The notes beneath the pieces were generated by a model, which searched no databases, was not told the origin of the DNA, and saw only the letters and a list, made by a program, of their open reading frames with translations. 64,000 bases of DNA. It comes from Escherichia phage Es2. Location of the stretch: the sequence record OR515477.1; one strand, written 5' to 3'. Positions 3,714 through 36,703 of this stretch are shown here, one piece after another (the stretch's first letter is position 1; each line of letters starts with the position of its first letter). The translations under genes were made by a program, and so were the position numbers.

Positions 3714-4079
3714 AATCTTGAAGTATGCCGGAATCGGTAGACGGGGCTGCCTAAAAGGTTTATAGGGAACATCCACTCCCTGCAACATACCTCATAAAGC
3801 GGCTGAGATAAATGGTCTATCTCGTGAAGGTTCAAGTCCTTCTGCTTCTTGATACATCTATGGCTCAAAGTGTAACGGTGCTATTTGATGCTCTTGGTAA
3901 GACTTCCCCGACATGCGTTCGGGAGTAAGCTGCTAAGACTAGAGTAGAAGAGTTTCTGAGAGCCGCCACAATTGAAAATTCGTACTCGTCTTGAGCTGCG
4001 CGCAATAGGAGATAACTTGATTAGTATTCTAGAACATGCTAATTGAGGAAGGTTTCGCTAACCCTGCGAGTTTTCAATT

Positions 4080-9267: not shown

Positions 9268-9966
9268 ATGAGGATTATTTCTAAGTTCGCCGATGTGTAT
9301 GATTTGCAGAACAGTTTGTTTGACCCAGATCGTGTGTGGGAACGTAAAACTGAGGAGTTACTGGTTAAAGTAACCGATGATGCAGAAAAGAACATTGTGC
9401 ATACTCGCCAGGTATTTCGTGATGGTTCGCTATCTTTCCGTGGTGATTTCGAATACTTTGTAAACCCACTATTTGTTGCAGGTGAAGTTTACTGGTTACA
9501 CGAGCTGTACTGCTGGCATCCAGCATTTAGCTTCAAAACGTTCAACCTCGACACTATGTTCGATAAAATGGAAGAGATGGGATTGCATGCTCGCTCTTAC
9601 TTAATGGATAAGAGTCGCGGAGATGTTCGTGAAACAATGCGTGATTTGCTCGCTGAAGCAAAACCTAAAGCAGAACGTATCTTATCCGAACTGCGTGTAC
9701 CGATTGCATATGTGAAAGGTATTAAGAAGAACGATAACGATGATGTTCGTAACTTCGTGATTCAGACTAACATTCGTTTCCATCAGTCAGGTATTCCGTG
9801 GCAGGAAATTGAAAGTAACTTATACCGTTTACACCAAGTTCTCGAACAGTATATCTTCGGTGTACTAGGAACTGGTGAGCCTGATATGATTAAAGTATCA
9901 GATAAAGACAGGTTAGCAGCGCATGGATTTGATACAAAAACTTCTTTCAGGAATATGGCAAGGTAA
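9268..9966 (+). CDS. hypothetical early protein
   Basis: Track ORF 232 aa. Confidence 0.65.
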   Translation: MRIISKFADVYDLQNSLFDPDRVWERKTEELLVKVTDDAEKNIVHTRQVFRDGSLSFRGDFEYFVNPLFVAGEVYWLHELYCWHPAFSFKTFNLDTMFDKMEEMGLHARSYLMDKSRGDVRETMRDLLAEAKPKAERILSELRVPIAYVKGIKKNDNDDVRNFVIQTNIRFHQSGIPWQEIESNLYRLHQVLEQYIFGVLGTGEPDMIKVSDKDRLAAHGFDTKTSFRNMAR

Positions 9967-10372
9967 GTGGTATATCCTGGGAGCAGGTCTAGCGATAGGC
10001 ATCGGGTTCGGTGCTTATCACTTAGTAGATAAAGTGGAGACTTTAGCGGGAGATCTTGCGGTAGCTACTAAAAAGATCTCTTCTCTAGAAACTTCCCTTA
10101 ATAAGGTGAAAGCTGAGAGCGAACTTCGGGAGACTCGAATGAACCAGTATTTCACAATGAATAATATTTCGCAAGCAGATCTAGACAAAAAGATTAAGCA
10201 GCTAGATAAAGCTCTTAGTCGTCAAGATATTATAGCTGCAAAGCCTGGATTGGTAACATTAATAGCTAAAAAGCAGAGTAGAGAGTTCGAGGAAAGATTA
10301 GCATGTTTAACTGGAAACTTGGAATACTGCTCGCAGCCGCAATCACAATCACAGGCTGTGCAGAAGAAATAA
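9923..10372 (+). CDS. hypothetical membrane-anchored coiled-coil protein
   Basis: Track ORF 149 aa; N-terminal TM helix; start uncertain (overlaps upstream ORF). Confidence 0.5.
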   Translation: MDLIQKLLSGIWQGKWYILGAGLAIGIGFGAYHLVDKVETLAGDLAVATKKISSLETSLNKVKAESELRETRMNQYFTMNNISQADLDKKIKQLDKALSRQDIIAAKPGLVTLIAKKQSREFEERLACLTGNLEYCSQPQSQSQAVQKK

Positions 10373-10656
10373 AACCAGAGCCTTCTCATGAGTTAAAGCA
10401 AGCTCATGTAGACTGGCCTAAAGGACTTCAACCTTGTAGCTTTGACTTTAAGTTTGAAAAGAAATTAGCTACAAATGGGGAAGATGGCGTAGTAGTTGTT
10501 GTACCATATAAAGATTGGAATGCAAAAGCAAAATGTGAGGAAGCAGTTTACTCTTACATTTCACGACTGACTGGTATGGTTTGCTTCTATCGCCAAGATT
10601 TACAAGAAAAACGTTGCTTAGTTTACTATCCACCAATTAACAATAGGAAAGATTAA
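10303..10656 (+). CDS. putative lipoprotein
   Basis: Track ORF 117 aa; signal peptide ending in lipobox-like ITGC. Confidence 0.5.
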   Translation: MFNWKLGILLAAAITITGCAEEIKPEPSHELKQAHVDWPKGLQPCSFDFKFEKKLATNGEDGVVVVVPYKDWNAKAKCEEAVYSYISRLTGMVCFYRQDLQEKRCLVYYPPINNRKD

Positions 10657-11408
10657 TGTCAGTATTAGTCGGTTTACATGGTGAAGCTGGTTCGGGAAAA
10701 GATACCGTTGCAAAATTAATTATCGATTGGTGTAATGACACGTATCCAACGTGTTTATCCCGTCGTTATAGTTTTGCTAAGCCCGTTTATGAACTTGCAT
10801 CCGTAATCCTCGGTGTAACTCCAGAGTTTCTAGGAGAGCGCAGAGGAAAAGAGATTGCTCAATGGTTTACGGTCACACAATCTCAATTGGAGCGAGCTAG
10901 AGATGTGTGGTTTAAATACGGTATCGATAAGTTTGAAGACTTCTCGTACGTTTGGCCTATTTTTGAGGAAAAATATCTTAATCCTCAACAACTTATCTCA
11001 GAGAATAAAGAAGACGGACTTTATAGTTTATTTATTTCTCCGAGAAAAATGTTACAGCTCGTAGGGACAGAGCTAGGAAGGCAGCTGGTGCATGAACGCA
11101 TTTGGCTCATAATTCTGGAGCAATCCATCGCTAAAGACGACCCAGACGTCGCCGTAATAACAGATGTTAGATTCCCCAATGAAGGAGAGCTACTCAGAGA
11201 AACAAACCATTTAGATATGGATTCTTTGATAGTAAATGTAGTACCCGCTGAGCAGAAGTTTACTATTAAATCAGATCATCCATCTGAAAGTGGTATTCCT
11301 GCAAAATATATTACTCACGAATTAGTTAATAAATTCGATGGTATCAATAACCTTAAACTAGAAGTTTATAACTTCTGTGACTTAGAGCTAGAACCACTAG
11401 TTGGATAA
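10656..11408 (+). CDS. dnk: deoxynucleoside monophosphate kinase
   Basis: 250 aa; P-loop GEAGSGKDT; size matches my recollection of the T5 enzyme. Confidence 0.75.
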   Translation: MSVLVGLHGEAGSGKDTVAKLIIDWCNDTYPTCLSRRYSFAKPVYELASVILGVTPEFLGERRGKEIAQWFTVTQSQLERARDVWFKYGIDKFEDFSYVWPIFEEKYLNPQQLISENKEDGLYSLFISPRKMLQLVGTELGRQLVHERIWLIILEQSIAKDDPDVAVITDVRFPNEGELLRETNHLDMDSLIVNVVPAEQKFTIKSDHPSESGIPAKYITHELVNKFDGINNLKLEVYNFCDLELEPLVG

Positions 11409-11420
11409 TCAAGGATCGCT

Positions 11421-12020
11421 ATGACTAATAAAAAAGAAGAAAAGACTAACCTGTTTCACTCCATTCGCCAATCTAACGAGTATACCTTTTTCTTTGATGA
11501 AGAATTAGGCCCACCAGATGAATACCGTGATTTATCAATGGTACTTATGCAGGCAAATGAGGACGACGAAATTAATCTGATGATTAATGGTCCGGGTGGT
11601 TATGTTGATACTGCTGCACAGTTATCTAACTTAATTGCTAATTGCCGTGGAACAGTTATAGGGCATCTGATTGGTCCTAGTGCTTCTGCTTACTGCACAA
11701 TTTTCCTATCCTGTCATGGGTGGGTAGTACATCCACATGCTACGCTAATGGGGCACACGTTCTCTGGCGGATTCTGTGAGAAGGGTCAAGAAATTAAGAA
11801 AGCCTATGAATCTTACAACAAGTTCGTAGAAGATATGATGCTAGATGTCTACTATCCGTTCTTCTCAATAGACGAAATCGACGAGATGGTAAAAGACAAC
11901 AAAAATATCTATCTAGATAGCAAAGAAATCCATAAGCGTATTGAAATCTTGGCAAAATATCGATCTGAGCAATATAATAAAGCCCAGTTACCTCAATTAG
12001 AGGAGCACAGTGAAGAGTAA
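11421..12020 (+). CDS. ClpP-like serine protease (putative)
   Basis: 199 aa; MINGPGGYVD and GPSASAY segments resemble the ClpP/S14 fold; no search run. Confidence 0.5.
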   Translation: MTNKKEEKTNLFHSIRQSNEYTFFFDEELGPPDEYRDLSMVLMQANEDDEINLMINGPGGYVDTAAQLSNLIANCRGTVIGHLIGPSASAYCTIFLSCHGWVVHPHATLMGHTFSGGFCEKGQEIKKAYESYNKFVEDMMLDVYYPFFSIDEIDEMVKDNKNIYLDSKEIHKRIEILAKYRSEQYNKAQLPQLEEHSEE

Positions 12021-12030
12021 GTAGTTTTAA

Positions 12031-12062
12031 GCCAGGGTTTAACGACCCTGGCTTTTCTTTTA
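12031..12062 (+). terminator. intrinsic terminator
   Basis: Hairpin GCCAGGG...CCCTGGC followed by TTTTCTTTT. Confidence 0.65.
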
Positions 12063-12123
12063 TCTAAAATTCTTCTTGACAACGACAAAATTTTATGCTC
12101 CAGAAGTGATCTTTAAAAACACA

Positions 12124-12152
12124 TTGTAATTTTCCTCCAAAATTAGTATAAT
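12124..12152 (+). promoter_or_regulatory. sigma70 promoter upstream of lysis genes
   Basis: TTGTAA - 17 bp - TATAAT; a consensus TTGACA also lies at 12076. Confidence 0.55.
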
Positions 12153-12176
12153 GGTACTGGTTAGAGGAGGTTACAA

Positions 12177-12833
12177 TTGGAAAAGTTCTTACAATTATTA
12201 ACGGTACTGCTCCAAGAAGCGAAAGATCCAGCATCGCTTCTTAAACGTCTGCTAACTATCTTAGTTGCTGTCATTATTTTCTTATTTGTTAGTAATACTA
12301 GCGAGGTGATGTCATTCTTAAAGACTTTCTCCACGTCTGCGGTTCTACAGGATGTTCAAACTCAAAGGATAGATAACTTTCCTAATGTAGCTAGAGAAAA
12401 AAGCATGGTACTCTTTTCTCAAACGGGTGCGGATGCTGTTTTTGTCGTCAAGTATAAACCCGATGCCATTAATGATTATTCTAACATTATTGCATGGGAA
12501 AGCAATGCGCAATTAGATAGGGCTGACTTGGCCGATAAAGCGGTAAATAAAACGTCTGAGCTATATAGACGTCACTTGGAAGGCTTTAACTACGCATCGG
12601 ATTTAAGTGTAAAAGTAAATAAATACATGGGGTTAGATATACCTGCGTTTAAGAACGTTACTTTTAATTACATATACACTTGTCCATATTTCAATCTAAA
12701 CAATATCTATGCTGGATATATTGGTATTGCTTGGAAAGATAATCCTGTAGATGCAGCCGATTCTGAGAAATTTAACGAGTATTTAACAAAGCTCTGTTCC
12801 CCACAACAGAGATCTTTAGGTAGATCAATATGA
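12177..12833 (+). CDS. hol: holin (putative), TTG start
   Basis: 218 aa; TM segment near N-terminus; directly upstream of endolysin; GAGGAGG RBS before TTG. Confidence 0.6.
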   Translation: MEKFLQLLTVLLQEAKDPASLLKRLLTILVAVIIFLFVSNTSEVMSFLKTFSTSAVLQDVQTQRIDNFPNVAREKSMVLFSQTGADAVFVVKYKPDAINDYSNIIAWESNAQLDRADLADKAVNKTSELYRRHLEGFNYASDLSVKVNKYMGLDIPAFKNVTFNYIYTCPYFNLNNIYAGYIGIAWKDNPVDAADSEKFNEYLTKLCSPQQRSLGRSI

Positions 12834-13243
12834 GTTTTAAATTTGGTAAAAATAGTGAAAAACAATTAGCTACCGTTAAGCCAGAGCTACAAAAAGTAGC
12901 TCGTAGAGCTTTAGAATTATCTCCATATGATTTCACGATCGTACAGGGTATTCGTACAGTAGCACAAAGTGCCCAGAATATTGCTAATGGTACTTCATTT
13001 TTAAAAGATCCTAGTAAAAGCAAGCATATTACTGGGGATGCCCTTGATTTTGCTCCATATATTAATGGCAAAATTGATTGGAATGATTTAGAAGCATTTT
13101 GGGCAGTTAAAAAGGCTTTTGAACAAGCAGGTAAAGAACTAGGCATTAAACTTCGTTTTGGTGCTGATTGGAATGCTTCGGGAGACTATCACGATGAAAT
13201 AAAACGTGGTACCTATGATGGCGGTCATGTCGAACTAGTTTAA
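12830..13243 (+). CDS. lys: endolysin, L-alanyl-D-glutamate peptidase type
   Basis: 137 aa; H..D..H zinc-peptidase-like motif positions (HITGDALDF, DGGHVE); size matches my recollection of T5 Lys. Confidence 0.75.
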   Translation: MSFKFGKNSEKQLATVKPELQKVARRALELSPYDFTIVQGIRTVAQSAQNIANGTSFLKDPSKSKHITGDALDFAPYINGKIDWNDLEAFWAVKKAFEQAGKELGIKLRFGADWNASGDYHDEIKRGTYDGGHVELV

Positions 13244-32505: not shown

Positions 32506-33240
32506 ATGAGTCAAGTTAAAACGAATATTACCCGCTCTTTCCCGCATATTTCCCGCGTTATGATTTGGGATCTGGACGGCACTATCATTAATTCTTTCCA
32601 TCGTGTAGCGCCTTGTTTTGATAGCGAGGGCAATTTAGATTTAAATAAATATAAAAATGAAGCCTGCAAACATCATTTAATAATGCAGGATTCATTATTG
32701 CCATTAGTTGAATATATGCGCCAGTGTATGAATGACGCTAACACGTTAAACATTATTTGCACCGCTCGACTGATGAGCAAGTCAGATTATTATTTCTTGC
32801 GTAAACAAGGATTGCGGGGGCGTGGAAATAGCAATATCCGCGTGTTTTCCCGCGATACCCTGCACAAATACTTTAAAGCTGATAAAGTTAGCGAGATATA
32901 CCACAGTAAGGACGCAGTTTATAAATCTTATTATTTTGAATTATTTAAACAATTATATCCGAACGCTGATTTTACAATGATTGATGATCATAAAGGCGTG
33001 TTAGCGGCGGCGGCATCATACGGATTTAAAACGCTGGACGCACAAGCCGTTAACGATATTCTATCAATCGGTGTTACATTGATTGGTGAAACCTTTATTG
33101 ATGAATCGCTCGACGATGATAATGATTATCAGTTCCTAGCAGACCGCCTGCAATTATGTTGGGAAGGTATGACCGAGGAAGAACGCGCAGAATATAGTTG
33201 CAGTCCTCAACAGTACATCGAGAAATTAAAAGTTGCATAA
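32506..33240 (+). CDS. dmp: 5'-deoxyribonucleotidase, HAD family
   Basis: 244 aa; HAD motif I IWDLDGTIINS; size and position match my recollection of T5 dmp. Confidence 0.75.
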   Translation: MSQVKTNITRSFPHISRVMIWDLDGTIINSFHRVAPCFDSEGNLDLNKYKNEACKHHLIMQDSLLPLVEYMRQCMNDANTLNIICTARLMSKSDYYFLRKQGLRGRGNSNIRVFSRDTLHKYFKADKVSEIYHSKDAVYKSYYFELFKQLYPNADFTMIDDHKGVLAAAASYGFKTLDAQAVNDILSIGVTLIGETFIDESLDDDNDYQFLADRLQLCWEGMTEEERAEYSCSPQQYIEKLKVA

Positions 33241-33397
33241 TAATTAAAGTTGAAATAGTCACGGTGTGTAATGATAACATGCCGTGACTATTAGTCTGCT
33301 AAGTACCGGGCGGTAATGAGACTCATTCTCATCTGGTGGGCCACTGGACACACCTCCATGTGTAATCTTATGAAATTTGGCAAAAAGGTAATTAGCG

Positions 33398-33601
33398 CTA
33401 TTTACGGACTGACTGCTCAAAGACTTCCCGCCACAGAGGGTCAGTCTTAACTAGATTATTAATATGCTCAATAGCTTCATCAAATCTCATGAATCCTTCC
33501 GGGATTTCCGAAGACTTAGGAAAAACTTGCAGCATCTCCTGTGTGATACCCATCTTTTCAAGATCTTCTTGGGTTAACTTAAACTGTCCGAATTCTTTCA
33601 T
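33398..33601 (-). CDS. hypothetical protein
   Basis: Track ORF 67 aa. Confidence 0.5.
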   Translation of the reverse strand: MKEFGQFKLTQEDLEKMGITQEMLQVFPKSSEIPEGFMRFDEAIEHINNLVKTDPLWREVFEQSVRK

Positions 33602-33843
33602 GAACTTCTCCTGTCTACCGGCTTATCTCCAGATTCTGACATACGAAATCTCTTTCGTGACGCCCGAGAACCGTCCGCCCACTCCCTCTCAAACTCCGCA
33701 CGTTTCTTCGCAAACCTCCGCTCTCTTTCCGCAATCTCCCGCGACACTTCCGCAATATATTTACGATGCGTATTAATAGCCGCAGTCATTCCGAAAACTC
33801 CCGCGATTACCCCGATAATAAAAGCAATTACAATACTAAACAT
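33598..33843 (-). CDS. hypothetical single-pass membrane protein with charged tail
   Basis: Track ORF 81 aa; N-terminal TM helix then Arg/Glu-rich region. Confidence 0.5.
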   Translation of the reverse strand: MFSIVIAFIIGVIAGVFGMTAAINTHRKYIAEVSREIAERERRFAKKRAEFEREWADGSRASRKRFRMSESGDKPVDRRSS

Positions 33844-34030
33844 CTAGTTCTCTCTCAATTTGCAGAATACGAGTGCTATCACAACGTTGCAATTCTACTA
33901 ATTTTTCTATAGCAAATTGTTGTTGTTTTACCTGGGCCTCTAGAGTTTTTAGGCGAACGTACACGGTGTAAGAAATAATGAAAGCTGACCAAACTGCTAG
34001 TACTATTAATATAGCTACTACTTCCATCAT
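33836..34030 (-). CDS. membrane micro-protein, paralog c
   Basis: Track ORF 64 aa MMEVVAILIV...; TM helix plus coiled-coil tail; ATGA overlap with paralog b. Confidence 0.5.
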   Translation of the reverse strand: MMEVVAILIVLAVWSAFIISYTVYVRLKTLEAQVKQQQFAIEKLVELQRCDSTRILQIERELDV

Positions 34031-34134
34031 TTACGTTTCTCCAGTAACAGAGTTTCAATTCTAGCTAAGTGGTTATCTAAAATACATTGCCCGATAATCA
34101 CAATCCCTAGTAGTGCAATAATTACCCATTCCAT
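34027..34134 (-). CDS. membrane micro-protein, paralog b (35 aa)
   Basis: Hand translation MEWVIIALLGIVIIGQCILDNHLARIETLLLEKRK; below track cutoff. Confidence 0.45.
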   Translation of the reverse strand: MEWVIIALLGIVIIGQCILDNHLARIETLLLEKRK

Positions 34135-34289
34135 TGTTTACGCTCCTCTAATAAAATTTCAATCCTAGATAATCTGTTACTCAACTGCATTAATTTAGCT
34201 TCTACTTGTGTTATAGAGGTATCTATTACACGTAAGCCTACAAAGAGAAGTATCAGTAAGATGAATATGCCAATAATTACCCATTCCAT
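34122..34289 (-). CDS. membrane micro-protein, paralog a (55 aa)
   Basis: Track ORF 34122..34319 trimmed to MEWVIIGIFILL start that overlaps upstream stop (TAATG). Confidence 0.5.
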   Translation of the reverse strand: MEWVIIGIFILLILLFVGLRVIDTSITQVEAKLMQLSNRLSRIEILLEERKQWNG

Positions 34290-34480
34290 TAAATCCACCC
34301 CGCCATAGCTGCTAACCAAAAACCTACGAAAATAAAGAATAGGATAGTTCCGAACCCAAAACTATTTATCCAGCTATCATATACCTCTCCACGTCTGCTC
34401 TTTCTTTTGTTTGACATATCTTTCATGCTCCTATAAATGTGATTTTTGAAATATTCTATAATTTGTGCACAACCGACCAT
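34289..34480 (-). CDS. hypothetical membrane protein
   Basis: Track ORF 63 aa; C-terminal hydrophobic segment. Confidence 0.5.
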   Translation of the reverse strand: MVGCAQIIEYFKNHIYRSMKDMSNKRKSRRGEVYDSWINSFGFGTILFFIFVGFWLAAMAGWI

Positions 34481-34593
34481 GCCTGTGAACTCATAGAAGG
34501 ACTTCTACTTTTCTTACATAGTGGTTTCTGCCAATATACCATCCAAGAAATAAAAAATTTAGTTTACTTGGATGTCTTTTTGTTTTATACTAA

Positions 34594-34860
34594 TTACAGG
34601 TAATTAGATTGCTCTAGTTTAAATTTACAATCACCGTATTTAAGGTCAAACTGACTGAGATCCCACCACCCAAACTTAGTACGGAGCTGTACTACTGGAA
34701 AGCGATCTCCCTTAATACGAACTTTTTGAACCTTGAGGCCGTAATGTTCCTCTCCAGCACCACCAAAAGATTTTACAAACCCCGTACAAAATGGTTTGGG
34801 GGCAGGTGCACAACCAGATAACATAACTGCGGCAACTAGTGCAATCACAAACTTTTTCAT
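34594..34860 (-). CDS. llp: Llp-like lipoprotein (candidate receptor-blocking lytic-conversion protein)
   Basis: 88 aa; signal peptide with lipobox LSGC; divergent from the receptor-binding protein gene. Confidence 0.65.
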   Translation of the reverse strand: MKKFVIALVAAVMLSGCAPAPKPFCTGFVKSFGGAGEEHYGLKVQKVRIKGDRFPVVQLRTKFGWWDLSQFDLKYGDCKFKLEQSNYL

Positions 34861-34945
34861 ATTTATCTCTCCATTTCTAATTTATGAATCTATTATAGCA
34901 AAATAGAGAGATGAAAGCAAATACATTTTTATAATAGGAGATTAT

Positions 34946-36703
34946 ATGGGTTTTTTCGCTGGAAAATATAGCGATGGTAAGACCGTACTATCTTTAAATA
35001 CTGAATCTGGTGGTGACATTAATCGTCACTATAGCCCAAATGCCAATAGTATTTTTCATAGTGATATGCCATTTGTCCTAGTTGATGGTACTTACGAGGC
35101 TGGGTTAGGTAATGCCGGGAATGGGTTTTTTGTATGTCAAATGCCCTCTGACATAATAAATATTAAATCTAATGACCCGGGTAGAGTTATACTAACTGCT
35201 ATTGAAATTAATGGTACTCACAGAGCTTTTCTTAATGGTACTCAGAGTAAGGTTGGTCAAACTATAGTTGCCACTCAGGCAGACCCCTTTAGGTCTTTTG
35301 CCAGTGTTTCTCAAACCAGTGGATTTGCATTTGGTAATAGTCTAGCATCTGGCACTTATAACTACAACCCCTCTCTAGGGCATGAAGAATCTATCTCTAG
35401 AAGTGGCACAGGGGGTACTACGTTACATAGTACGTATCATGGTATAGTTAGGCCCGGTGGTGGAGCACCTGTAGGAGTTACTGTTGCAGAAGCCTTTGCA
35501 CAATTAGGTTTTCCTACTAATAGTAGCACAGTACCTGTAGATGGTAATAACCCATACTATTGGGATCCTGGATGGATGGCTCCTCTAGGAGCAGCATATA
35601 GGGGGCATGATTGGTTTTATGTTTGCAATTCTAATATACGTGGATATGGTGGGGTTAGGCAAGGGCTCCCTGGTAATGTAAATACTATGTACCATGATGG
35701 TGGTAATAGATTTGTTTGTAGAGGGTCTACTACTAATTTAGCTAACCAGTCGGGTGACTCTACAATACTACAGGACTGGTATAATATAACTCCTACTAAG
35801 GTTATTTGGTATGTTCTTAATTTAAGGTACTCAAATGGTGGAATGAGTATTTCAGGTAACCCTTTCACTGGTTCTGATATTCTTATATCTCCTTCTAATT
35901 TTATAATTAAAGGGGTAAGTCTCCCTAATACCGGGTATAAATTTATTAATCAGAATGCTTTTGGTAACCTAGGTTACCGTCCTGATATGGAGTATATAGG
36001 GAATAACGCTGCGTATACTGGGGTTTTTGGGGATACCACTGCAAGGTGTGAACTTGTAGGATCTAGTAATGGAGGGTTGTGGTCTCCTGTAGATTATGGA
36101 GGTGCCAAATCACAGATTAGCATTTACAAATTTGGAGCAGGTAAACAGTGGTATGTAAACTCTAACGATAATACTATTGGTAATGAGCATGGGGTTGTTT
36201 GGGGACCATCAGCAGTTCCATTACGACTTTTTGGAGGAAATGTAGGTAGCTCTTACATGGGGGATGATATTACTCCTAGCTATCCAGGAACTGGGGATAG
36301 GTACGTTGGTTTATCAACTATTGGGCTAGGTATACCTGGTGGCAATGCTACAGTAATTCTTACTACTGAAGTTATATCAGGTAATCTTAACTGTGCAGGT
36401 GTCCCAGCTAACACATGGAATAATGGTGTGTTTCAAGTACAAGGAAGAAAAGCGCATAGTTATAGTAATGGAGATGCAATATTCCACCAGATTCTAACGC
36501 TACCTGTGGGCTATCTAGTACCTTTTCATACTACAGCAGCTTTTAGATACACCCCTAATAATGCTTTAAGCAGGAATAGTTTTATATATACCGCTAAAAA
36601 CCTAGGAAATGGAAATGTAGAGTTAGGGGTAGTTATGCATGTCAGTTTAGGTAGTGCAGTTTTCTTACCTAGACTAAGAGTAACAGTTCAACGCCTTACC
36701 TAA
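34946..36703 (+). CDS. oad: receptor-binding tail protein (pb5-like)
   Basis: 585 aa, Gly/Asn-rich; position next to llp and before terminase; receptor identity not determinable here. Confidence 0.65.

Follow-up and report, generated by a model that had tools for sequence, protein, structure and literature searches.

T5 is a model phage and its lipoprotein gene llp is well studied, yet the genes that lie right behind llp have no assigned function. This leads us to ask what these genes are, whether they derive from one another, and what their products could do in the infected cell. We examined them in a 64,000-nucleotide stretch from Escherichia phage Es2 (OR515477.1), hereafter the window, which belongs to a T5-like phage (Tequintavirus) and matched 299 T5-like records by megablast.

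Gene content and order behind llp

The string opens with llp itself (34594..34860, minus strand), whose 88-aa lipoprotein product carries the lipobox LSGC and is matched by Pfam LPAM_1 and by phrog_1119 (Cor superinfection exclusion protein, E 1.8e-26). Its counterparts in relatives are annotated as superinfection exclusion or receptor-blocking proteins, and the receptor-blocking lipoprotein gene that an earlier note on this DNA had placed next to a group of micro-protein genes is indeed of this Llp/Cor type. Downstream of llp, on the same strand, are six genes, p42, p55, p35, p64, p81 and p67, that overlap one another by 1, 13, 4, 8 and 4 nt in that order. Five of them encode membrane micro-proteins with a single helix, and the product of p67 is soluble. 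The three central reading frames, p55 (34122..34289, 55 aa), p35 (34027..34134, 35 aa) and p64 (33836..34030, 64 aa), were all recovered on the minus strand with the sequences previously quoted for them, and they are translationally coupled. The flanking membrane ORFs reported with them are also present on that strand, p81 at 33598..33843 (81 aa) and a frame at 34289-34480 whose conserved start gives a 42-aa product, p42 (34289..34417), the longer extension to 34480 not being conserved. Past p81, and joined to it by an ATGA overlap, lies p67 (33398..33601, minus strand), an acidic 67-aa ORF in which the hydrophobicity analysis found no hydrophobic segment.

Four of these genes are already known. 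p42, p35, p64 and p81 are the orthologs of T5.159, T5.160, T5.161 and T5.162, which have been annotated since 2005 as single-transmembrane hypothetical proteins and each of which is noted in the phage T5 record (NC_005859) as 'contains single transmembrane domain'. The cassette is the local copy of T5.159-T5.162, a series of translationally coupled genes that extends from llp to the terminal-repeat junction. Between llp and the right terminal repeat, the four orthologs come in the T5 order and agree with T5 in length (42, 35, 64 and 81 aa) and in coupling. The cassette differs from T5 by an extra p55 between the T5.159 and T5.160 homologs, by the extra soluble p67 after the T5.162 homolog, and by an Llp of the 88-aa type where T5 has a 77-aa FhuA blocker. 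The gene order agrees with T5.158-T5.162 and with the annotations of IME178, DaisyDussoix and MM-1, and synteny of the cassette is conserved across 28 loci. The 35-aa gene, which the earlier note reported as absent from the ORF track, is not an unannotated one: it figures in NC_005859 as T5.160, and many relatives carry an annotation for it. As matters stand, the finding re-describes annotated hypothetical genes of an ordinary, known and uncharacterised locus.

p42 and p81 are the constant flanks of the cassette, each found in 28/28 loci, and its middle consists of one to three genes among relatives: some relatives are devoid of p64, one is devoid of p35, and in one the slot of p35 is taken by a different gene of 41 aa. 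Since p55 or p64 has been naturally lost in relatives, neither is essential. p67 is confined to some relatives (5 of the 28 loci). Phage records number 34 for p55, 190 for p35, 305 for p64 and at least 259 for p81; a word-index search of the p55 family returned 6 clusters, a p35/p55 profile 18, and p64 forms 245 protein clusters at 71-98% identity with synteny kept. As a supporting point, the cassette would seem from sequence comparison to have an accessory, fast-turnover character.

PHROG matches of the string proteins have E-values from 2e-11 to 2e-45. They are full-length for the membrane proteins, with phrog_8596 for p42 (E 3e-32), phrog_6369 for both p55 (E 2.2e-11) and p35 (E 1.7e-25), phrog_5851 for p64 (E 3.7e-32) and phrog_6447 for p81 (E 2e-45); p67 matches phrog_20937 (E 5e-40). 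PHROGs lists phrog_6369, phrog_5851 and phrog_8596 as 'unknown function', and assigns phrog_6447 to 'moron, auxiliary metabolic gene and host takeover' with the sole description 'membrane protein'; therefore, no mechanism follows from any of these families. Sequence searches of Pfam, NCBIfam, PADLOC and PDB gave no named family above threshold, and homologs of the cassette proteins were not found outside the T5-like phages. Our literature search retrieved no mention of T5.159-T5.162, no reported phenotype and, as usable evidence, an RNA-seq table for the relative Bas33 alone.

Coding evidence and expression

The cassette genes are real and not chance ORFs, as purifying selection, synteny, Shine-Dalgarno motifs and transcription of the locus in a relative all indicate. 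Ratios of dN/dS for genes of the string range from 0.11 to 0.32, meaning purifying selection, with 0.11 for p35, 0.29 for p55 and 0.32 for p64 (6-20 distinct sequences) and 0.19 for p42; the value for llp is 0.12. Shine-Dalgarno motifs occur at the string genes.

In the relative Bas33, RNA-seq at 20 min gave TPM values of 219 and 127 for llp, 162 and 137 for the p55 homolog, and 462 and 408 for the p64 homolog, all three falling to about 0 when infection was halted after first-step transfer (PMC13250531 Dataset S1). The locus is transcribed there at a level similar to llp, and only after second-step DNA transfer. Beside the major early and late genes, with values of over 10,000 TPM, the cassette is modestly expressed, and the 108- and 129-nt genes reached about 1 TPM and p81 13-22 (PMC13250531). 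Because these counts were analysed without strand specificity and are erratic from gene to gene (PMC13250531), they demonstrate transcription of the locus and not translation of each ORF.

A promoter and terminator scan of the region returned nothing over shuffle expectation, and no promoter-like or terminator-like site was called in the spacer between llp and p42. This spacer holds an 8-bp hairpin, CAUCCAAG...CUUGGAUG (34540..34574, minus strand), with no U-run after it, the RNA fold of 34470-34600 having a z of -2.6. After p67, in the gap where dmp and the string converge, a 39-nt hairpin at 33254..33292 is followed by a U-rich run (RNA fold, z -2.6) and is probably the terminator of the string. 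The spacer devoid of such sites and this hairpin with its U-run together lend support to llp and the string forming one transcription unit.

Protein architecture

The earlier note had assigned p55, p35 and p64 an N-terminal transmembrane helix and a common tail, and an architecture of single-pass anchor and helical tail stands. Each protein has one hydrophobic segment, at its N-terminal end (Kyte-Doolittle 17-residue mean 2.7-3.2), and the tail of each has heptad periodicity, with a hydrophobic fraction of 0.69-0.82 at a/d positions against a background of 0.38-0.41. In AF2 models, p55 and p64 are predicted as one continuous helix made of membrane anchor and heptad tail, spanning residues 2-54 in p55 (pLDDT 91) and 2-63 in p64 (pLDDT 85.6). 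The N-termini read ME or MME, basic residues come past the helix, and the tails are 16-38 aa long. Each protein would be a single continuous helix whose N-terminal third crosses the inner membrane, and the positive-inside rule makes an N-out/C-in orientation probable; in p35 and p55 the charges flanking the helix are balanced, and there the topology call is not decisive. The remainder would be a Leu/Ile-zipper-like tail, and parallel homo- or hetero-oligomers would therefore be expected at the membrane.

Phospholamban is a zipper-stabilised single-pass oligomer, and the modelled helix of p55, which continues from the membrane anchor, resembles such proteins. The p35/p55 tail NHLARIETLLLEKR is identical at 8 of 13 positions to the C-terminal segment NELARIKKLLGER of GCN4-pLI, a designed coiled coil, Leu occupying the 'a' positions and Ile the 'd' position; since this match has an E-value of 0.08-0.1 and involves a designed peptide, it is an analogy in which heptad patterns have converged, without homology. 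In p64 the membrane helix is variable and the heptad tail highly conserved (dN/dS 0.57 versus 0.17).

Of the flanking proteins, p42 is of the tail-anchored type, with a basic N-terminus (MSNKRKSRRGE) and a C-terminal membrane helix, and p81 joins a strongly basic tail to an N-terminal membrane helix that contains GxxxGxxG. The likeness of p81 to bitopic envelope and division proteins (LapA_dom, E 2.6e-4; FtsL, E 0.003; ZapG-like, E 0.049) falls short of the curated cut-offs in every case.

The p55/p35 pair and the position of p64

The three central genes had been proposed to be tandem paralogs. This holds for p55 and p35, which share phrog_6369 and align in hhalign with a probability of 95.3% (E 2e-8); it is not demonstrable for p64, which belongs to phrog_5851 and reaches only 2-17%. 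Pairwise shuffle tests agree, with z 5.4-7.9 and p<1/3000 for p55 against p35, p 0.02-0.06 for p55 against p64, and p 0.32-0.54 for p35 against p64. p55 fits phrog_6369 only with a 14-residue insertion and 3 additional residues in the membrane helix; relative to p35, it is longer by 3 residues in the membrane helix and by exactly 14 residues, or two heptads, in the tail. In the window p55 runs to 55 aa and not to the customary 51, as CAA stands in place of the usual TAA stop. Both genes lie downstream of llp, between the homologs of T5.159 and T5.161/T5.162 (28 loci and T5), and T5 itself does not have p55. Judged by sequence comparison, p55 and p35 stem from an old tandem duplication and are the sole demonstrable paralogs among the three.

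The dS between these paralogs is about 1.0, yet their first 18 coding nucleotides are identical and lie inside an exact 20-nt direct repeat (family D3, spacing 155 nt), with one copy at the p55 start (34271..34290) and the other at the p35 start (34116..34135). Genomes without p55 miss exactly the stretch between the two copies, and gain or loss of p55 appears from these alignments to be clean, between the repeats. The long/short pair differing by two heptads, and this clean gain or loss of the extra copy at 20-nt repeats, are the modest new details of the locus.

p64 is, as far as profile and alignment comparisons can tell, a separate family with the same build as p35 and p55. That all three instead arose by tandem duplication of one ancestral micro-protein gene, p64 being an old and strongly diverged copy, is unlikely, though it has several points in its favour. 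Besides their common build and position, all three begin M-(M)-E-[WV]-V; ATGGAAGTAGTA, which opens the p35 variant of some relatives, equals the 12 nt after the first ATG of p64; and the motif [DSN]xx(x)[LI]x[RQ][IV]ExxL, which was defined post hoc, occurs once in p35, twice in p55 and once in p64, a six-frame translation of the window having it at no other place. The hhalign scores of p64 with p35/p55 are 2.4-2.7 SD over block-shuffled, composition-preserving decoys (p 0.007-0.033), which is marginal. However, the hhalign probability of 2-17% is similar to that of the comparison with the unrelated p81, the shuffle tests given above are weak for both p64 pairs, and PHROGs keeps the families apart, with no cross-hit at E<=1. 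When 1.84 billion representatives were searched exhaustively with a profile from the p64 alignment, only 3 proteins were found, all p64-type, and p64 therefore has no outside relatives. DNA alignment likewise gives no support to an origin of short-tailed p35 variants by fusion of p35 and p64: the variants ending RIERKLRGDK, found in relatives without p64, have no p64-derived 3' end, and the same variant occurs alongside p64 in MK005300.

Possible roles of the cassette

A role at the membrane is reasonable for these proteins. The explanation that we find best overall, and hold at a little under even confidence, is that the T5.159-T5.162 cassette encodes membrane-anchored coiled-coil oligomers acting on the inner membrane of the infected cell. 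The proteins would be made together with Llp once the whole genome has entered, and would be neither structural nor a lysis system. Most likely, they would bind a component of that membrane and alter it, and the result would be a receptor-independent layer of envelope protection beside Llp, either by excluding incoming phage DNA or by neutralising a membrane-acting host response. This functional step, which we infer only from neighbourhood and architecture, is plausible, and a role in superinfection exclusion, taken from the llp neighbourhood alone, is possible.

T4 Imm and Sp, HK97 gp15 and P22 SieA are inner-membrane superinfection-exclusion proteins of other phages. By functional analogy, the cassette proteins may be likened to them as small, membrane-anchored phage products that are non-structural and are expressed in the course of infection, and their genes are in addition co-located with the known exclusion gene llp; they differ in having no sequence or profile similarity to these proteins. 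No similarity to characterised exclusion proteins was found in PHROGs, Pfam, NCBIfam or PADLOC. In Decker's work of 1994, Llp alone reportedly conferred T5 resistance, and existing data therefore need no second exclusion layer. As would be expected of such proteins, expression during infection comes from a non-structural unit, with transcripts of the locus present in Bas33 at 20 min (unstranded analysis). Of the proteins compared, HK97 gp15 appears in PMC13190303. The earlier note had also suggested injection control; for the phage's own injection, this is excluded by the far-right position of the cassette in the unique region and by the absence of Bas33 transcripts at first-step arrest.

Small membrane proteins that tune their partners exist in bacteria (AcrZ, MgtS), phospholamban being a eukaryotic analogue. 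The micro-proteins could accordingly regulate a host inner-membrane machine, such as a transporter, a protease like FtsH or the divisome, and serve host takeover instead of exclusion; we regard this as improbable, if somewhat less so than the roles discussed below. A size of 35-81 aa, a single membrane helix per protein and a short amphipathic tail would suit such a role, as would the sub-threshold likeness of p81 to LapA_dom, FtsL and ZapG-like proteins, although matches under the family thresholds reflect architecture only. The tails are conserved and the membrane helix of p64 varies, a contrast that suggests a conserved partner on the side of the tails; only under the predicted N-out/C-in topology would that side be the cytoplasm. 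Against this role, the known takeover genes of T5 are pre-early and lie in the terminal repeat (PMC13250531), whereas the cassette is expressed only after full DNA entry.

A part in lysis timing, as holin-, antiholin- or spanin-like components, had been put forward as well and is very unlikely, because a complete lysis set is found elsewhere in the window: an i-spanin (9923-10372; phrog_739, E 4e-37) paired with an o-spanin (10303-10656), a holin (12177-12833; phrog_860, E 4e-78) located 21 kb from the cassette, and an endolysin (12830-13243). T5-like lysis cassettes have been placed elsewhere in the genome (PMC4342426). What speaks for lysis is the presence of small membrane proteins with charged tails, an adjoining lipoprotein gene, and a weak, chance-level match of p64 alone to the Rz-like spanin family phrog_739 (E 0.11), the best of any lysis profile; no lysis-family profile matched a cassette protein at E<0.1. 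p64 does share with Rz-type i-spanins an N-terminal membrane helix followed by a coiled-coil region. But it is less than half their size, has a tail of only about 38 aa and no basic N-terminus for a type II anchor (a topology inferred from sequence), and gave no BLASTP alignment to the window's own i-spanin; p64 as an i-spanin was rejected. Nor is the cassette beside the endolysin gene, where a holin or antiholin would be looked for, and the adjoining lipoprotein is a receptor blocker of the Llp type. Least probable is that p64 is a tail assembly protein, a name it bears in UniRef and several GenBank records. Its gene is close to that of the receptor-binding tail protein, but lies in the llp string on the strand opposite to the tail genes, is missing from several relatives and encodes a membrane anchor; the label has no support in Pfam, NCBIfam, PHROG or PDB, and PHROGs lists the family as of unknown function.

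Returning to membrane-anchored oligomers acting on the inner membrane, a more specific and distinctly speculative version would make the variable middle (p55, p35, p64 and the 41-aa variant of a metagenomic relative) a set of diversifying zipper-tailed subunits within a constant p42/p81 scaffold. These would form an inner-membrane complex for receptor-independent superinfection exclusion or anti-defence, co-regulated with Llp, and subunit length in whole heptads would set specificity. Should the cassette turn out to serve exclusion at the inner membrane or host manipulation, the textbook account of Llp would gain a second layer, and the cassette would offer a compact system for studying the membrane assembly of micro-proteins of 35-81 aa. 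Among the 28 loci, the same cassette stands behind both the 77-aa T5-type Llp and the 88-aa Llp, a presence that supports its independence of receptor type.

Paralogy and structure of the small membrane proteins

The 55-, 35- and 64-aa minus-strand ORFs (p55, 34122-34289; p35, 34027-34134; p64, 33836-34030; small genes are named here by protein length) have the positions and sequences that an earlier note gave in describing them as three tandem paralogs. Paralogy holds for p55 and p35, whose Smith-Waterman score of 58 compares with shuffle means of 23-27 (z 5.4-7.9; 0 of 3000 shuffles as high), which both match phrog_6369, and for which hhalign returns 95% probability (E 2e-8). In the alignment, p55 is p35 plus three hydrophobic-helix residues and a 14-residue insertion, exactly two heptads, which comes after a conserved Asp and ahead of the conserved NxLxRIExxL tail. 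Their first 18 coding nucleotides are identical and fall inside a perfect 20-nt direct repeat starting 1 nt upstream of the ATG in both genes; over the remainder synonymous divergence is about 1.0, far in excess of the roughly 0.1-0.3 between orthologs, so the duplication is old. In genomes lacking p55 the missing stretch is precisely the interval between the two repeats, which points to gain or loss of p55 through recombination between them.

The third protein, p64, belongs to a separate family (phrog_5851) with no PHROG cross-hit to that of p35 and p55. Pairwise shuffle tests gave p 0.02-0.06 against p55 and were not significant against p35, and hhalign gave 2-17% probability, no better than against the unrelated p81. 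Relative to decoys in which alignment columns were shuffled separately within membrane and tail blocks, the hhalign score of p64 with p35/p55 was 2.4-2.7 SD higher (p 0.007-0.033). All three proteins start M-E-[WV]-V, and a motif defined post hoc, [DSN]xx(x)[LI]x[RQ][IV]ExxL, occurs four times in them but at no other place when the window is translated in all six frames. Together these features hint at a shared ancestry of p64 with the pair, short of a demonstration; similarity beyond hydrophobicity is significant for p55 with p35 and marginal at best for p64, and two of the three proposed paralogs are demonstrable as such.

The single membrane segment proposed for these proteins was recovered in each of them and in both flanking small membrane proteins, p42 (34289-34417, minus strand; the longest ORF reaches 34480, the conserved form having only 42-45 aa) and p81 (33598-33843, minus strand). 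Hydrophobic residues fill 69-82% of the a/d heptad positions in the p55, p35 and p64 tails, against a background of 38-41%, and AlphaFold2 models p64 (residues 2-63, pLDDT 85.6) and p55 (residues 2-54, pLDDT 91) as one uninterrupted helix each. The tail of p35/p55 has a weak match (8/13 identical, E 0.08) to the C-terminal end of GCN4-pLI, a designed coiled coil, with Leu in the 'a' and Ile in the 'd' positions; this is an analogy only, but fits a parallel zipper extending from the membrane. The positive-inside rule predicts an N-out/C-in orientation for p64 and p81 and an N-in one for p42, and is ambiguous for p35 and p55.

Locus organization and expression

Megablast with 33300-34950 matched 299 phage records at 80-95% identity, almost all of them Escherichia or Salmonella T5-like phages (Tequintavirus, Demerecviridae). 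Annotated relatives carry the receptor-binding tail protein gene on one strand and, on the other, the receptor-blocking lipoprotein gene llp and, behind it, a series of very small genes that ends at the terminal repeat, with the dNMP-monophosphatase gene (dmp) convergent on it. In T5 (NC_005859) this series comprises T5.159 (129 nt), T5.160 (108 nt), T5.161 (195 nt) and T5.162 (246 nt), orthologs of p42, p35, p64 and p81, each annotated 'contains single transmembrane domain', and T5.162 lies 41 nt from the start of the right terminal repeat. The corresponding window features are a 585-aa receptor-binding protein ORF (34946-36703; phrog_4815, E 3e-274), llp (34594-34860, minus strand) and a dmp homolog (32506-33240). 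This pre-early-type gene directly adjoins the right-end cassette, with over 30 kb of additional phage genes on its far side; record OR515477.1 therefore seems to hold a single terminal-repeat copy or a circular permutation of the genome, in contrast to linear T5 records, which end at the repeat.

Adjacent genes from p42 to p67 overlap by 1, 13, 4, 8 and 4 nt, bearing out the proposed ATGA/TAATG-type coupling, and each start in the string has a purine-rich Shine-Dalgarno-like motif ahead of it, within the preceding gene. The last gene, p67 (33398-33601, minus strand), is a soluble acidic 67-aa ORF without a hydrophobic segment (phrog_20937, a family labelled 'unknown function'); it is coupled to p81 by an ATGA overlap, lies at or near the terminal-repeat boundary and occurs in only 5 of 28 compared loci. 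A promoter and terminator scan called neither a sigma-70-like promoter nor a terminator between llp and p42, a spacer that contains an 8-bp hairpin without a U-run. The convergent gap between p67 and dmp holds a hairpin of 39 nt (33254-33292) whose 3' side is U-rich and which may be a bidirectional terminator at the terminal-repeat edge. The simplest reading is one transcription unit from the llp promoter to this hairpin.

Pooled pairwise Nei-Gojobori estimates over the 28 related loci and the window gave dN/dS of 0.11 for p35, 0.29 for p55, 0.32 for p64, 0.25 for p81, 0.19 for p42 and 0.12 for llp; within p64 the value is 0.57 for the membrane helix, a sign of relaxed constraint, and 0.17 for the constrained tail. 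The window p55 has 55 aa instead of the 51 aa of relatives because its usual TAA stop reads CAA, with readthrough to a TAA within the p35 start region. The p55, p35 and p64 ORFs are real genes. Annotations of the cassette already exist for T5 and for hundreds of its relatives.

All five genes occur in the relative Bas33 (HildyBeyeler; bas33_0187-0191), for which RNA-seq 20 min after infection (two replicates; PMC13250531 Dataset S1) gives TPM of 219 and 127 for llp, 162 and 137 for the p55 homolog, 462 and 408 for that of p64, and 22 and 13 for that of p81. The homologs of p42 and p35 (bas33_0191 and bas33_0189; 129 and 108 nt) stand at about 1 TPM, probably a read-assignment artefact of per-gene counting, since they sit between well-covered overlapping neighbours (about 140-460 TPM). 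When daunorubicin arrests infection after first-step transfer, cassette and llp counts are essentially zero (PMC13250531 Dataset S1). Because the short-gene counts are likely artefactual and the analysis lacked strand specificity, what the table establishes is transcription of the locus after second-step transfer, and not that individual ORFs are translated; a literature search found no ribosome-profiling or proteomic support for the cassette ORFs.

Distribution and possible function

In the phage collection, tblastn matched p64 in 305 records (112 of them below 60% identity), p81 in at least 259, p35 in 190 and p55 in 34. Both p42 and p81 are present in 28/28 loci and enclose one to three genes, the middle being a p35 variant only in some relatives and a p64 variant only in one. 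In the metagenomic relative L030, an unrelated-looking 41-aa single-pass gene (3879-4004; MEFWIALVAC...AQLEHRVKALEEKE) occupies the p35 slot, adjoining p55- and p64-like genes. Protein cluster searches yielded 245 clusters for p64, every one T5-like, 6 for p55 and 18 for the p35/p55 profile. A p64 HMM run exhaustively against 1.84 billion proteins retrieved only three representatives, and neither approach found homologs beyond T5-like phages. The cassette occurs behind the 77-aa T5-type Llp as well as behind an 88-aa Llp, and thus does not track receptor specificity. Two relatives (L029 and L030) have an acidic ORF of 104-112 aa inserted between llp and p42.

By way of their zipper tails, the membrane-anchored helices could form parallel homo- or hetero-oligomers, and translational coupling would fix the production ratios of the cassette proteins, together with Llp. 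Because a constant frame (p42, p81) surrounds a variable middle, and the cassette is restricted to one phage subfamily and independent of receptor type, we infer an accessory module that would act on the infected cell's inner membrane. Among the roles considered, which include the superinfection exclusion, injection control and lysis timing suggested earlier, we rank first a putative receptor-independent protective or exclusion function; PADLOC returned no match to a defence-system component. A putative tuning of a host membrane machine by the cassette proteins ranks second. Control of the phage's own injection is contradicted by the entry of these genes last and their silence until second-step transfer.

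Lysis timing and morphogenesis fall far behind. A separate lysis set lies within one neighbourhood of the window (9923-13243), namely an i-spanin (9923-10372; phrog_739, E 4e-37), an o-spanin overlapping it (10303-10656), a holin (12177-12833) and an endolysin (12830-13243), in agreement with the published T5-type lysis cassette (PMC4342426), and this tells against the small genes as a lysis system. A dNMP kinase gene and a protease-like gene separate the spanins from the holin. The phrog_739 match of p64 (E 0.11) is noise, and p64 does not align pairwise with the window's own i-spanin. UniRef, along with some GenBank records, calls many T5.161 homologs 'tail assembly protein'; Pfam, NCBIfam, PHROGs and the PDB give this label no support, and for want of a detectable basis it looks like a propagated misannotation. 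Our literature search found no paper addressing T5.159-T5.162 or their homologs.

Comparison of p81 between the window and 27 related loci (L001-L027) revealed three alternative C-termini, ...RFRMSESGDKPVDRRSS, ...RFREFRPEHRFDDPSMR and ...SKIDGKS. The type of C-terminus appears to correlate with what the gene meets before the terminal repeat (p67, a gene for an HNH endonuclease, or directly the terminal-repeat junction), a pattern pointing to a recombination breakpoint within the final ~14 codons of p81.
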